DNA of 63,561 nucleotides, the filler included, from Collodictyon triciliatum (lineage: Eukaryota), in the NCBI GenBank assembly GCA_043381765.1. It is 13 parts of 13 records of this genome, joined end to end, with 100 filler letters (N's around TTAATTAATTAA, not from the genome) between each part and the next. Parts side by side here need not be neighbours in the genome. Positions count along the whole stretch, not along the records: positions 1 to 4,680 come from JBHJMP010005852.1; 12 more parts are not named here. One strand, 5' to 3'. The notes beneath the pieces are model-generated. The model worked only from the letters and a program-made list of their open reading frames with translations. It did not search any database and was not told where the DNA came from. Below are positions 1,083-26,761 of the stretch, piece by piece. Each line of letters begins with the position of its first letter. Position 1 is the stretch's first letter. Both the position numbers and the translations under genes were made by a program.

Positions 1083-2010
1083 TTATTTTCTGTGAGCAAT
1101 AATTTGCTATAGGAAATGTTGGCTTTGGTTCGCTAGCCATTGTTCGCATTGACGCTACTTGGTGACCGGGTGGCGGAGAAGTAGTCGGTAATCAGGAATT
1201 GCATCCTGTGGTTTGGCCTGTAGCCTGGGTCTTGTGCTTGCATGAGAGATACAAGGCGAGGTTTAATCTCCTTCTCAGCTTCTTTCCACATGTCTCTCCT
1301 CATAGTGTCGGAGTAGTAGTGAACGCGCAGGTGGCGAGGGAAGCTATTGAGAAAAGAGATTTGTGTGATGTCATCCAGCCTGTTATCAGGAATGGGTGGC
1401 TGGTTGTTGAGTCTTGCTTTACGTGAGTATATGTGCGCTATCCACATAGTCCATAGCAAATGGCCTCGCGTCACTGCCCAGAATGTTTTTGCATCTGGAC
1501 GCAGCTGTTGCAGAGGCCCAAAATATCTCATGGATTGGACCAACAGCCGCAGCCGTCTTGAGTGTCAGCTGAAGAATCTCGCCGGCTGTTTTGTGCAGGT
1601 TTTGAGCCAAGGAACATTGCACAAATGTGTGCTCAATGGATTCATCACCGTTGCTGCAAAGTGTGCATTGTTGGGAGACTTTGCCAGCTTTTGCCGCACG
1701 TGTTCCCATCCATGGCTCCCTATTGGTGATAGTAAGCATTAGAGAGCGGTGATTTGGAAGGACTTGCGGGGTTCGTGCTTGTCCCCAACTCGCGGTGAGC
1801 GGGGTGTGGGTGATGCCCAGTGTTTCTCCCCGTCGTTGATGTTTTGACTTTTTGTAGGATGTTGGCGGCGATATTTTGTATCGAAAGAATTTGGGGTAGG
1901 CAATAGCCATCGAGAACTGAGTAGACTGCGCACCGTTAGACGAGCGCTCGTTCTTGAGGCGGAAGAAGAATGGCGACGGGATGTCGTATGAGATTGGTCT
2001 GCCTGAGCGC
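1083..2010 (-). mobile_element. 5'-truncated non-LTR retrotransposon, family A (L1/Tx1-like ORF2 C-terminus with zf-RVT-type zinc knuckle), frameshifted
   Basis: CTLCSNGDESIEHTFVQC motif (1419..1910 frame), then after a frameshift LLWTMWIAH...LITDYFS...NG* (stop at 1133). Related copies at 18404 and 39480. Confidence 0.8.
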
Positions 2011-2074
2011 CATTTTTACTTTGCTCTTCAAATTCTTTTCATTTTCATTCTTCCATTACTGACTTTATATTTTT

Positions 2075-2186
2075 ATACTAGAATGGGTATACCAATCTTT
2101 CGACTGGCAAACTTCGTCCGCTAGTATCCAAGGTCTCACCAATTTTTTCACTATGGTCGTGTAGAGGTGAAGACTGCCAGGAAAGA
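2075..2186 (-). ncRNA. Putative Fanzor omegaRNA scaffold
   Basis: Immediately 3' of the Fanzor ORF. Nested stems 2096-2109/2175-2186 and 2133-2140/2166-2174; 7-bp pseudoknot-type pairing 2075-2081/2121-2127. Confidence 0.5.
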
Positions 2187-2242
2187 CTCGACAGCCTTTT
2201 TTTAAAGAAAGGTGTATGCATTTTTTGAAGGGTTAAAAGAAC

Positions 2243-3020
2243 TTAGTTGAGTATATTTTTAGCGCTGTTAAAGTCCCTTGTCAAGAATGCACTTTGTTTG
2301 CTTTCTCGGCGATTGCATTATTTAGATAAGTGACATCTATACAACTTTTTTTGAATCACCTTTCAGTTGCACACTTCAGTTTTTTTTTTTTTCGCAGATG
2401 CATCATATCTTGGAGTTATAAATTTATTTACGCTAACTATTTCAAAACGTTTGAATAGTATTTTTCGTAAACCTCTTCCGATTGTTGCCATAAAATGTTT
2501 AATCGGACAATTTCTGCCCCAGTCTCCATACGCCAGTACAACATCCTCGCCAGATGTCTTTTCGATTCGGTCCATAAACAATTCTTCACTTCCTTTTGTA
2601 TTAACATACTGTCTCCATCTCATCTTTCGAAAAGTCACTTGCTTCGTAAAATCTGAATAATTCCATCTGGTATCTTGATTTCATAGGTACATATTTTCGA
2701 AATTTTTCATAATCGACCGTGCATGAATTATATTAATCCAGTTCTGTCTCTAAATCCATTAAAAGATACTGTTAATGTCTCAAATCGCTGATTCTCTTCA
2801 AAAGTCCTGAAACCAAAAGAAACAGGATTTTGTAAACCTGTTGTCATGCATATCCTGAATAATTGTACTTTTCTTTCTCGCGCAAGAGTATTTTGTGATA
2901 TATAATATATTTGCTATCATGTCTTCTTGGTGTGCCGCGTAACGTAATTTCTTACCTGTCTCATCCACCATATAAACCAAATTTAAACTTACCTGCGTCC
3001 ACTCCAACTATTTTTTGTCG
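2243..3020 (-). pseudogene. Fanzor1-type (TnpB-family) RNA-guided endonuclease, degraded
   Basis: Minus-strand fragments in the expected order: KIVGVDAGK (RuvC-I), NLVYMVDETGKKLRY, ETELD*YNSCTVDYEKF, FRKMRWRQYVN, VVLAYGDW, TIGRGLRK, VSVNKFIT (RuvC-II, E>K), eroded Cys motif, FLTRDFNSAKNI (RuvC-III). Several stops and frameshifts. Confidence 0.85.
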
Positions 3021-3042
3021 CTAATAAAGATAACAGCTCTTC

Positions 3043-3338
3043 ACAGCCTGCTGAAACACGCTCGCATTCTTCGCTACTCTGACCGCAAGCGAAGAGAGAT
3101 GTGGGAATGTGTCGTGCGATATCTCCCACAGCATATCCAACCCCTGCTACCCACACAACCAATCAAGCAGTTGGGTCGCCCTCCTGACCAGCTCGCTATC
3201 ACTGACTTCTTTCCAGTGCTACCCTCTCCACGGTAGTGTCTTCCCCTACTCGCGTTTGCTCTCTCCCCTGCGCTCCCATCCCGCCCCTTTGTATGGCATA
3301 ACCTTGCTACACTTTGAATCGAATAAAGGTAAAAAAAA
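3043..3338 (+). mobile_element. 5'-truncated non-LTR retrotransposon, family B (ORF2 C-terminus, 3'UTR, A-tail)
   Basis: Encodes ILRYSDRKRREMWECVV...LAITDFF, nearly identical to 18920-19247 (-). Ends ctttgaatcgaataaaggt(A)n. A second diverged tail lies at 3361-3385. Confidence 0.85.
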
Positions 3339-4521
3339 TAATCTAAAAACCCTTTCTTCCCTTGAATCTAATTAAGGGAAAAAAAGTATTTTGTGACCTT
3401 TTTATTTACCTATTATACTATTATATCATTCAAGGAGCTTCTTGGAAACATCAAAGCTCTTGAGTATATCGATTCTAATATTTGGTGTCATAATATCGTA
3501 ATAATTAGTGCCTTAATTGTATATTATGGTGCCATCATAATTGTTAAATTATTATCCACATATATACATGATGCAGACATAATTTCCAAAACGAAGGGAG
3601 CCACAGAAAACTCCACATATAGAAAATTGAATACTTTGGACTTTTCATGTGTGGCGAATTTCTTTCGCCACACCCACCACATATTCATAGAAAATAAAGA
3701 AACTATCACCTAATGCGGATTATTTTTTTACCCTGAAATCAATTGGCCTTGTAGTAAAAAGAGAATCGGCCAAACCATTAAATTTTCTCTTTCAAGAATA
3801 ACAAATATGTAGAAAATTTCCTAATAAATGAAATATGAAAGAATGATTCATTCGCACTCAAGTTATTCTGTCACCAAGGTCTGGAGGTTTTTTTTTTCTA
3901 GTCCATGCCTCCCAGCTCCCTCACAAGAGAACAAAAGGAAGTTTTCTCAGCCGGGGCAATTTCGTCTTGTTCGCCTTGGAGAATATATATAGCCCCCAGG
4001 AAGAGATTTCCTCCACAATTATTTAAAATTTCAAAATCGGGGTCGAAGAGCACGTAATATATGTTGGTTCGTATAAGACGCCAAGCGCGCCTCTCTTGGA
4101 CTATTATTTGGGCTATTTAAAATATAATCAATAGGCAGAATATGGCAATGAAAACCAATGAGTGGGAGAGAAACAAAGGCCTCGGGCCAAAGGATGGGGA
4201 GGGAGAGGAGTGGACACAAAGACACGCAACAAAAAGGGTTTGTGGCGTAACTTGGGGGACAAGGTGCCGAGGGGCGGGGCTTGGTGGTTATAACCCCTGC
4301 TCTCATTCATGCTTTGTCCTATACTTGTGCAAGCTACATTTCGATCATTCCCAAGACGCGACACAAAAACTCCCCCGTCCCTATTGAAAAAAGAGAAAAT
4401 AGTGAAGAGAGAGAGGGAGAGAGATGGGACAGCCGCAAGAGGACGAACCTTTGCAAGACAAATGGTGGCACTAATAAACACCGCAGTGTGCAGCCCCTTC
4501 CTTAGACCCACTCCAACCAGC

Positions 4522-4680: not shown

Positions 4681-4780
4681 NNNNNNNNNNNNNNNNNNNN
4701 NNNNNNNNNNNNNNNNNNNNNNNNTTAATTAATTAANNNNNNNNNNNNNNNNNNNNNNNNNNNNNNNNNNNNNNNNNNNN
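4681..4780. other. Artificial contig spacer (N44-TTAATTAATTAA-N44); also at 9458, 15846, 20623, 25398, 30173, 34948, 39720, 44491, 49260, 54028, 58795; internal N gap at 11149-11169
   Basis: Identical 100-nt linker with stops in all six frames; contigs are ordered by decreasing length (~4.68 to ~4.67 kb). Confidence 0.98.
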
Positions 4781-5131: not shown

Positions 5132-9340
<4,209 letters not shown>

Positions 9341-18919: not shown

Positions 18920-19247
18920 AAAATTCCTTTATTCGATTCAAAGTGCAGCGAGGTTATGCCACACAAAGGAGCGAGATAGGTGCGCATGGTAGAGACCAAA
19001 CGCGAGTAGGAGAAGAAAATACTGTGGAGAGGCTAGCACCGGAAAGAAATCAGTGATAGCAAGTTGGTCAGATGGGCGATCCAACCGGTCGATTGGTTGC
19101 GCGGGTAGCAGGGGTTGGATATGCTGTGGGAGATATCGCACGACACATTCCCACATCTCTCTTCGCTTGCGGTCAGAGTAGCGAAGAATGCGGGTGTGCT
19201 CCAGCAGGCTGTTCACGAAGCTGTATTGCACGAGGCTTTCAAGCCTG
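18920..19247 (-). mobile_element. Family B LINE 5'-truncated insertion, 328 bp, 14-bp TSD
   Basis: cagacgaaaacaaa at 18906-18919 and 19248-19261; homologous to 3043-3338. Confidence 0.9.
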
Positions 19248-25687: not shown

Positions 25688-26761
25688 CTTGTTCTGGCTG
25701 ATATCGATGAAGCTCAGATTCGCCAGGAGGGAGATGTTGGCTGGAAGCACAGAGATGTTTCTTCCCGTGAAATTCAGCGAGTGGAGCTGGATATATACCT
25801 CGCTTGGTGTCCATCCCGGCTTCGTAATTTCGTCTTCCTGTTTTTTTTTTATGTTTTAGGATACATTTTTGTTATTTATTTTTTATCTTTGTGTGCTTAC
25901 GGGGTCGTAGAGCTGCAGAGCGCGGATGTGTTGGTAGTCACCGTATCCTCGATCTGTGTTGTTCCACACTGGAAGGGCTGTGATGCCACGCGGTGCTCTC
26001 TTTATGGTTTGTGTCGCTCCGAGATTTATATAGAGTTTTTTCAGATTTGTGAGTGCTGTGATCTGTGGTGGAAGCTCTTCCATCTGCATGTTTCGTTGTC
26101 AGTCATTTTTCTTCTAAACATAAATAATAACATAATATATGAATAAAAACATACCGGATTGTTGAATACACGAAGATCTGTGAGACCAGTCAAACACGAT
26201 ATTTGTGCAGGTAGTGATGACAGCTTATTGTTATGAACACGAAGATCTGTGAGACCAGTCAAACACGATATTTGTGCAGGTAGCGATGACAACTGATTGT
26301 CACCAACACCAAGATATCCGAGACCAGTCAAACACGATATTTCTAGAGGAAGCTCCTCCATCTGCATGTTTCGTTGTCAGCGACTTTCTTTTAAACATAA
26401 ATAGTAATATAATATATGAATAAAAGCATACCGGGTTGTCACATACAACAAGATATGTGAGACCAGTCAAACAGGATATTTGTGCAGGTAATGATGACAA
26501 CTGATTTCCATTAACATTAAGTACACTGAGACCAGTCAAACACGATATTTGTGCAGGTAGCGATGACAGCTGATTGCCATAAAGATACAATTCTTTCAGA
26601 CCAGTCAACAAAAAAACACCAGGTGGCACAGATGATAGATTCCTGCAATTGAGGTTCAGATTTGTGGAGCTTTTAAGACTGGCAATATCAGGTTTCCCAG
26701 AGAGTTTCCGGACTTCTTCCAACAGTGCATCCACTTGGGCAGGTGTGAGATAGTCGGACAT
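25688..26761 (-). CDS. Leucine-rich repeat protein (23-aa LRRs), exons 26761-26432, 26361-26155, 26083-25901, 25837-25688; continues toward the contig edge
   Basis: LxxLxVxxNQLSSLPAQISCLTG repeats; phase-0 GT-AG introns keep the frame. Confidence 0.85.

Follow-up and report, generated by a model that had tools for sequence, protein, structure and literature searches.

The 3' end of a broken Fanzor1 gene in the genome of Collodictyon triciliatum probably holds the template for the ~120-nt scaffold of a Fanzor1 omegaRNA, running on the minus strand from 2197 to ~2077. It would form the right-hand terminus of a non-autonomous, now dead element of the Helitron type and would belong to a cassette derived from mariner elements. 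Positions refer to the window, the whole stretch of 63,561 nt that was analysed. The window consists of contigs joined at 4681-4780 and at 12 similar gaps, which are N runs with a short linker, and sequences on the two sides of a joint need not be linked.

The Fanzor1 gene remnant and the right end of the element

The window contains one end of a Fanzor1-carrying element, with the following features:

2078..3042, minus strand: 3' part of the element, 965 bp; the 5' part is absent from this copy
2078..2081, minus strand: CTAG, where the element ends on the right, found unaltered in 71 of 99 genomic ends; conservation falls off beyond it
2148..3042, minus strand: broken 3' half of a Fanzor1 gene with several stops and frameshifts
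3043..3345, plus strand: retroposon 3' fragment with an A tail, which interrupts the Fanzor copy; the same repeat occurs elsewhere with 13-16-nt duplications
3384..3462, minus strand: remnant of the upstream body of the element (body positions 169-248, 81% identity, E 2e-12)

The element belongs to a large family. An exact 16-mer from the 3' region occurs at least 127 times in the genome (reversed control, 0), and a search of the same genome with window positions 2000-2330 gave 344 candidates, of which 40 were scored and all 40 matched. These copy numbers are lower bounds, and a surplus of 3' ends among the copies is partly due to the queries used and was not counted as evidence. The family body is ~2.7 kb and the entire element, in copies with paired ends, is ~3.4-3.7 kb. 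The segment at 2078-3042 corresponds to body positions 1757-2726, with 88.9% identity. Identity to the family majority is 87-95% among 96 copies, and the window copy, at 89%, is among the more decayed.

Judged by its sequence, the protein of the family is a Fanzor1. The majority frame has the WED TDG motif, the rearranged RuvC D-E-D, and the C4 zinc finger. The best PDB matches of a natural 311-aa open stretch in one copy (L016) are three Fanzor1 proteins, namely PpFz1 (E 2e-12), SpuFz1 (5e-5), and GtFz1 (6e-5). No intact copy was present among the loci fetched, and the longest open stretch in L001-L190 was 311 aa. The window copy retains the RuvC-I Asp at 2999-2997 and the RuvC-III Asp at 2275-2273; its RuvC-II Glu has become Lys (2425-2423) and its zinc finger is disrupted. 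The window element is a dead, truncated copy that has lost its 5' part and is cut by the retroposon fragment.

Other repeats and genes lie nearby. The ~300-bp retroposon 3' end has a second copy near 18924-19247 and has landed in several Fanzor copies. Just past the element end, a fragment of a non-LTR retrotransposon occupies 1133-2015 on the minus strand (zf-RVT, E 1.3e-7), and related pieces adjoin or interrupt several Fanzor copies. Two leucine-rich-repeat genes lie on the minus strand, one at 6718-8013, which matches LRR families (LRR_ComC below cut-off), and one at ~26150-26750, which was judged by eye.

Where does the element end? CTAG was kept in 47 of the 60 distinct ends examined, and the next base was a host T in 45 of these 47. 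Matches stopped between window positions 2042 and 2088 in the first 30 loci compared. The Fanzor element terminates at 2078, with the drop in conservation at 2078/2077. The initial annotation had proposed an end near 2075 and an alignment of all genomic copies to find the conservation drop; the copies compared showed it directly after CTAG (2081-2078), so that the proposed end was within 3 nt of the true boundary. In other words, the stretch between the ORF end and the right end is conserved and then gives way to variable flank, the arrangement by which a Fanzor1 omegaRNA is recognized. A search for empty sites via the 3' flanks found none among the loci compared.

Fold of the predicted omegaRNA and its relatives in giant viruses

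The 3' end of the family majority is predicted to fold into SL1 (11 bp), SL2 (8+5 bp), and a terminal stem around a GAAA hairpin, with most pair probabilities >0.9. The window copy folded from 2198 gives the same three stems:

2171..2197, minus strand: SL1, an 11-bp stem with loop UCUUU that overlaps the last codons; paired in 93% of cells across the 99 ends
2136..2170, minus strand: SL2, with an outer stem, an A-rich internal loop, and an inner hairpin; 91% paired in the 99 ends
2121..2127, minus strand: AUACUAG, the 5' strand of the terminal stem; pair probabilities 0.57-0.98
2090..2109, minus strand: GAAA-loop hairpin of 8 bp, 12 nt from the end, the inner part of SL3; 88% paired in the 99 ends

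AUACUAG forms a nested stem with CUAG and the 1-3 host bases directly after it. The folding energy of the window copy is slightly better than that of shuffled sequences (z -1.99 for the 112 nt from 2186 to 2075; z -1.95 from 2198). An Rfam scan of 1900-2500 gave nothing above chance. The scaffold starts at 2197, ~11 nt further 5' than had been drawn at first, and SL1 lies mostly outside the range drawn. The RNA had been placed directly downstream of the gene. Its position at the 3' end of the Fanzor element holds, but the gene frame continues across SL1 and into the middle of SL2, where it meets its stops at 2153-2148. The EKVGQSVDFT tail motif common to many relatives (C-termini of P0157-P0193) is probably a read-through into the conserved RNA and not a protein motif.

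The initial annotation drew a different fold, in which a long outer stem encloses AUACUAG and this loop forms a TnpB-like pseudoknot with the 3' end. All complementary strings listed for it exist in the window copy (minus strand, 2186-2075), the UCUUUC/GAAAGA half of its outer stem is fully paired in 55 of the 99 distinct genomic ends, and, according to one report, secondary-structure prediction may miss pseudoknots (PMC11832414). However, the outer stem needs strands of SL1 and of the GAAA hairpin. Its 12 pairs have a probability of 0.02 in the 124-nt fold, and its CUGGCA/UGCCAG half is fully paired in 4 of 99 ends (66% of cells). The small UGG/CCA hairpin has a probability of 0.00 and is fully paired in 4 of 99 ends (57% of cells), and GUCU/AGAC is fully paired in 17 of 99 (74% of cells). 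The inner-stem pairs reach probabilities of 0.22-0.93 in the 124-nt fold, and SL2 includes the CACC/GGUG portion of that stem. The nested helices as drawn amount to -21.2 kcal/mol, versus -30.0 kcal/mol for the minimum-energy fold of the same 112 nt of the window copy. Across 29 equal-length copies (a subset of the 99), 88.0% of cells are paired in the three-stem structure versus 75.7% in the drawn one.

The pairing that had been taken for a pseudoknot, AUACUAG/CUAGU, is the nested closing stem of the conserved fold. Each of the five inner pairs of AUACUAG/CUAGUAU forms in 82-89 of 99 ends; the two outer ones draw on host flank and form in 66 and 36. Much of the perfect outer stem and of the 7-bp match comes from changes present in the window copy or in a few others, and from its flank. 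The enclosing outer stem is not conserved; without it AUACUAG/CUAGU crosses nothing and is therefore not a pseudoknot. The nested terminal stem of viral relatives, described below, also goes against the drawn structure. So do reports that Fanzor1 RNAs lack the pseudoknot of TnpB and Fanzor2 and have a double-stranded stem at the end instead (PMC10711439, PMC11832414, PMC13565253). The TnpB-like pseudoknot is largely refuted, and we regard it as highly improbable.

A tertiary knot of another kind, added to the three stems, is doubtful but deserves more weight than the drawn one. It could join UCUUUC/UUUC of the SL1 loop to GAAA in the A-rich loop of SL2 or in the last hairpin, or it could be an H-type pseudoknot in which a weak CUUGG/CCARG hairpin would present AUACUAG to the 3' end. 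UUUC occurs in the SL1 loop of the host and of three viral loci (L239-L241), a hairpin is found at the matching place in many viral relatives, and contacts between SL2 and SL4 are described for the GtFz1 RNA (PMC11423790). CUUGG/CCARG is 93% paired, its common G/A variant still pairing with U (97 of 99), and GGGUCU/AGACCU is 96% paired in the 99 ends. However, high pairing among near-identical copies is not covariation, and none of these helices appears in the minimum-energy folds.

Is the fold under selection? The pairings had been said to persist although the ORF has decayed; they do not do so through selection on the window copy, as this more decayed copy (89% identical to the majority) has mismatches in SL2. 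Conservation among the Fanzor copies was found, but covariation in the 29 copies was not above shuffles for either structure (158/500 and 111/500). A lack of covariation within the family is expected because the copies are dead descendants of near-identical masters.

More informative are the relatives outside the genome. Fanzor1 relatives in freshwater metagenomes and viral contigs sit among giant-virus-like genes, and the two closest that were checked (L239 and L240) have a DDE_3 transposase and 32-33-nt TIRs. A covariance model built from the 29 host copies alone was searched over 16 chosen viral loci (98 kb). It matched at the end of the Fanzor ORF in L240 (E 2.3e-5), L239 (2.9e-5), and L241 (5e-3). 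Matches at E<0.01 were confined to the post-ORF region of these three loci, and the other 13 of the 16 had nothing under E 0.8. SL1 in L239-L241 has the same stem length, with most letters changed and pairing kept, and SL2 is in register with their UGACC/GGUCA stems in the model alignment. These matches cover only SL1 and SL2; SL3 is left unaligned to the true viral end.

The terminal stem was therefore not part of the model matches and was seen in the viral ends themselves. After 3 of 75 were dropped as cut short, 72 ends were left, and in 70 of these, folded singly, the strand after a TTGA-TTT linker forms a nested stem with the right TIR and first flank bases. Several pair types occur at three positions of this stem (62 ends aligned without gaps). 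In the host counterpart, the strand after TTGGA pairs with CTAG and T. We read the host terminal stem as the viral terminal stem re-fitted to a new end, a proposed homology by position. Secondary structure is conserved with compensatory change across families in SL1 and SL2, and in the viral terminal stem. Three viral relatives (L200, L205, and L206) have extra hairpin insertions of ~50 nt in the terminal stem region of the omegaRNA.

The tree joins the host copies and P0001 (support 100) within the viral Fanzor1 radiation; it is a quick tree with a midpoint root, and the direction is not fixed by it. P0001 is the closest protein, at 59% identity, and no coding locus for it was found in the viral contigs. 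Taken from its sequence and fold, the stretch is most likely the template of a Fanzor1 omegaRNA scaffold. The original proposal of a structured, omegaRNA-like scaffold at the Fanzor 3' end thus stands in the form of a three-stem fold whose SL1 and SL2 are conserved with outside relatives.

Probable Helitron-derived carrier, target duplications, and predicted guide

Ahead of the body, most full copies show a GTTT tract followed by ~550 bp, a TAA tract followed by ~100 bp, and a CTTTT tract. The link to Helitrons comes from a RepHel ORF on contig C6377 (L114) with STPRs, Helitron_like_N, and PIF1. Pieces of 150-285 bp that resemble the 5' part of this RepHel (72-80% identity) occur in four Fanzor copies, three of them with a whole Fanzor body (L118, L330, and L331) and one with a deleted body (L184). 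The remnants occupy the same place and orientation in several Fanzor copies. The connection to RepHel runs through relatives that share element parts; in the C6377 ORF the catalytic HUH region is N in the assembly and both ends are off the contig. With an open frame of ~1190 codons, including the N gap, the C6377 copy may be a young autonomous Helitron. Helitron_like_N matches on C3197 and C1290 had no arm in common with the element.

A second link comes from siblings that lack the Fanzor:

L122, L155-L160 (C178, C535, C2357, C2700, C5006, C7635), and L329 (C1887): Helitron siblings without a Fanzor, ~0.8 kb long, that end in a C-GAA-G hairpin

Six siblings have their own hairpin and a CTAG-like end after the CTTTT tract, and the same tract is found, with hairpin and CTAG/T, at the end of a decayed helicase on C1887 (here and below, the slash in an end marks the junction with the host). 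Three of the six sibling ends continue directly into the interior of the Fanzor body, which is what a 3' bypass would give. The Fanzor body starts exactly where the sibling hairpin would start. This fits read-through capture as in Helraiser, for which a hairpin 11 nt ahead of CTAG/T and read-through capture have been described (PMC4778049).

The ends of the element were compared with this model. The right end has the Helitron1-type arrangement of a 3' hairpin ~11 nt before CTRR followed by a host T. The last hairpin folds as DNA too. Its GAAA loop is inverted in 14 of 99 copies, whose mutual identity is 0.871 versus 0.875 to the rest; inversion in copies that form no subfamily suggests that the hairpin forms repeatedly in DNA. 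The hairpin at 2090-2109 is a probable Helitron terminator. The 22 left ends, picked by eye, begin with TT (14), TC (5), or CT (3) and are preceded by A in 18; a canonical Helitron1 begins with TC after A. Some left ends (TTTCCAAGG in L032 and L039) are complementary to the linker at 2133-2125, which is ~50 nt away from the end, and the target is not the TTTT after which Helitron2 elements insert. Among the five longest inverted repeats of L164 and L033, none runs end to end in the manner of Tc1/mariner TIRs, and a search of the 717 nt before the Fanzor start found no mariner transposase remnant (best E 0.002, short matches). Three very short derivatives (L058, L066, and L069 on C469, C924, and C1085) retain no more than the final 63-75 nt, which begin inside SL2 and run to CTAG, and two of them are fused to the element left end. 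They look like transposon ends and not 'ghost' guide RNAs because SL1 is absent.

Of the 22 paired ends, at least 7 show target duplications of 11-14 nt that end in ATAAA. The match between paired ends exceeds that of shuffled pairs in blind, rule-based windows (p 7e-4; 23 rows, including one duplicate and one mis-anchored, with 4 dropped) and also with fixed left ends (p 2e-4; 7 of 22 strong versus 4.8% of wrong pairs). The duplications are therefore real in part of the family. No duplications were found at 5'-truncation points. ATAAA is present at +4..+16 in 50 of 98 right flanks versus 4 of 98 at +26..+38, left flanks finish in ATAAA-like letters, and the Fanzor-less siblings carry the same T...ATAAA flank. 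Because of these duplications, the carrier is classed as Helitron-derived and not as a canonical Helitron1, which leaves none. Precedents for target duplications are CRe-1/2/3 and MCi-2 (PMC3627910).

The proposal that the guide is drawn from flanking DNA agrees with the loss of conservation into variable host flank at 2078/2077:

2060..2077, minus strand: host flank, the predicted guide; start at 2076-2074, depending on the number of flank bases in the stem

Positions 2077-2064 show the T...ATAAA pattern of the duplicated target, and the left end of the window copy is missing. Because the pattern is that of the family target, most of the guide proposed at first may be duplicated target.

Two other readings bear on the carrier. 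One keeps the RNA and assigns it to an unclassified element without TIRs and with 11-14-nt duplications, in which the Helitron pieces are passengers. It draws on the two duplication tests (p 7e-4 blind; p 2e-4), on the rarity of the TC start, and on MCi-2A/2D, described with 11-12-bp TSDs and no TIRs (PMC3627910). It must contend with RepHel remnants that recur at one place and orientation in several copies and with a pyrimidine tract and hairpin-CTAG/T end common to the siblings and the helicase-coding copy. Moreover, the Helitron2-borne CRe-1/2/3 are also reported with TSDs in 10-70% of copies (PMC3627910). We consider this reading unlikely. The second takes the hairpins as DNA signals of a transposon end, with no guide RNA made. 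The folding of the last hairpin as DNA and its loop inversion in 14 of 99 copies speak for it, but cut-and-paste relatives, which have no use for a terminator, retain SL1 and SL2 with compensatory change, and the common polymorphisms are mostly G-U-type variants. There is very little chance that it is correct. A guide RNA scaffold within a Helitron-derived carrier is the reading retained here.

Proposed origin and comparison with known systems

How might the scaffold have worked and come to its present place? In an active ancestor, a transcript would have run through the gene end into host DNA and been trimmed to the scaffold plus ~15 nt of flank, and the Fanzor1 protein would have used this flank as guide, as in SpuFz1 and others. 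Trimming of Fanzor RNAs with ~15 nt of flank for a guided nuclease is described in PMC10432273, PMC11423790, and PMC10530073. The scaffold would consist of SL1, SL2, and a terminal stem formed around the GAAA hairpin by the internal strand, the last bases of the element, and the first target base, without a guide-adjacent pseudoknot. The cassette would have come from a Fanzor1 radiation present in Tc1/mariner elements of giant viruses. A Helitron would have taken it up, with its own terminator replaced or bypassed, and the inner hairpin of the RNA together with CTAG would then have acted as the new rolling-circle end. The internal strand would have altered such that pairing with the new end continued. 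From these observations we infer expression, binding, the direction of transfer, the dual use of the last hairpin, and the guide start at 2076-2074.

On balance, we favour somewhat the view that, once the cassette had jumped from a giant-virus mariner into a Helitron, one short sequence served both as the last guide-RNA stem and as the rolling-circle terminator. To add to dual use and jump that the ATAAA-ended duplications are a footprint of the Fanzor in insertion, with ATAAA as the TAM, would be a long shot. This is much less likely because the Fanzor-less siblings share the T...ATAAA flank, although the protein could act in trans. If true, it would mean Helitron transposition assisted by an RNA-guided nuclease. 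A homing model with an 11-14-nt duplication would have either the first 11-14 nt of the guide also matching the left junction, or the TAM preceding the target at the filled right junction.

Both Fanzor1 omegaRNAs and Fanzors carried by Helitrons are already known. The omegaRNA/reRNA of Fanzor1 systems (SpuFz1, GtFz1, PpFz1, and SfAV Fanzor1) occupies the same site, between gene end and right end (PMC10432273, PMC11423790, PMC10711439). Like these RNAs, the predicted one has a stem-loop scaffold within the 75-150-nt range, terminal bases that are double-stranded with no pseudoknot, target-derived bases that enter the scaffold, and a guide that would come from the flank. Unlike them, it has no TIR, overlaps the last ~16 codons, and finishes in a hairpin-CTAG/T end; all Collodictyon copies seen are dead, and the RNA is a prediction from sequence.

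CRe-1/2/3 (CrFNuc), of the Chlamydomonas Helitron2 type, are also non-autonomous Helitrons with only a Fanzor1 and a structured 3' RNA (PMC3627910, PMC10530073). They share many shortened copies with intact 3' ends and variable target duplications in some copies (PMC3627910). The ends differ, A/T...CTAG/T in the Collodictyon family versus TTTT/T in CRe-1/2/3. Unlike in CRe-1/2/3, the duplications here occur in copies whose left end is intact and have ATAAA as their last letters, next to that end, there is no clear asymmetric TIR, and no introns were seen in the majority frame. The right end is like that of Helraiser, with a ~20-nt palindrome 11-12 nt before CTAG/T, CTTG-type variants, and 3' end bypass with capture (PMC4778049). 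Unlike in Helraiser, the left end is mostly TT rather than TC and target duplications are present (PMC4778049).

The Tc1/mariner Fanzor1 elements of giant viruses (PGv-1 type, PMC3627910; L239 and L240) have the same SL1 and SL2 and a terminal stem that includes their last bases. Their protein is 35-37% identical to the host stretch and 38-47% to P0001. They differ in their DDE_3 transposase, 32-33-nt TIRs, and intact ORFs, and their terminal stem has 15-27 pairs versus 5-7 in the host family. Searches of the open literature yielded no report of an omegaRNA that switched from a mariner to a Helitron, and Repbase entries may already hold such families. The Collodictyon family offers a near-direct before-and-after view of one scaffold in two transposon classes, in which SL1 and SL2 were kept and the terminal stem appears to have been re-fitted from a mariner TIR end to a CTAG/T end. 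This refit is the kind of adaptation proposed in PMC10711439, and it is now testable.
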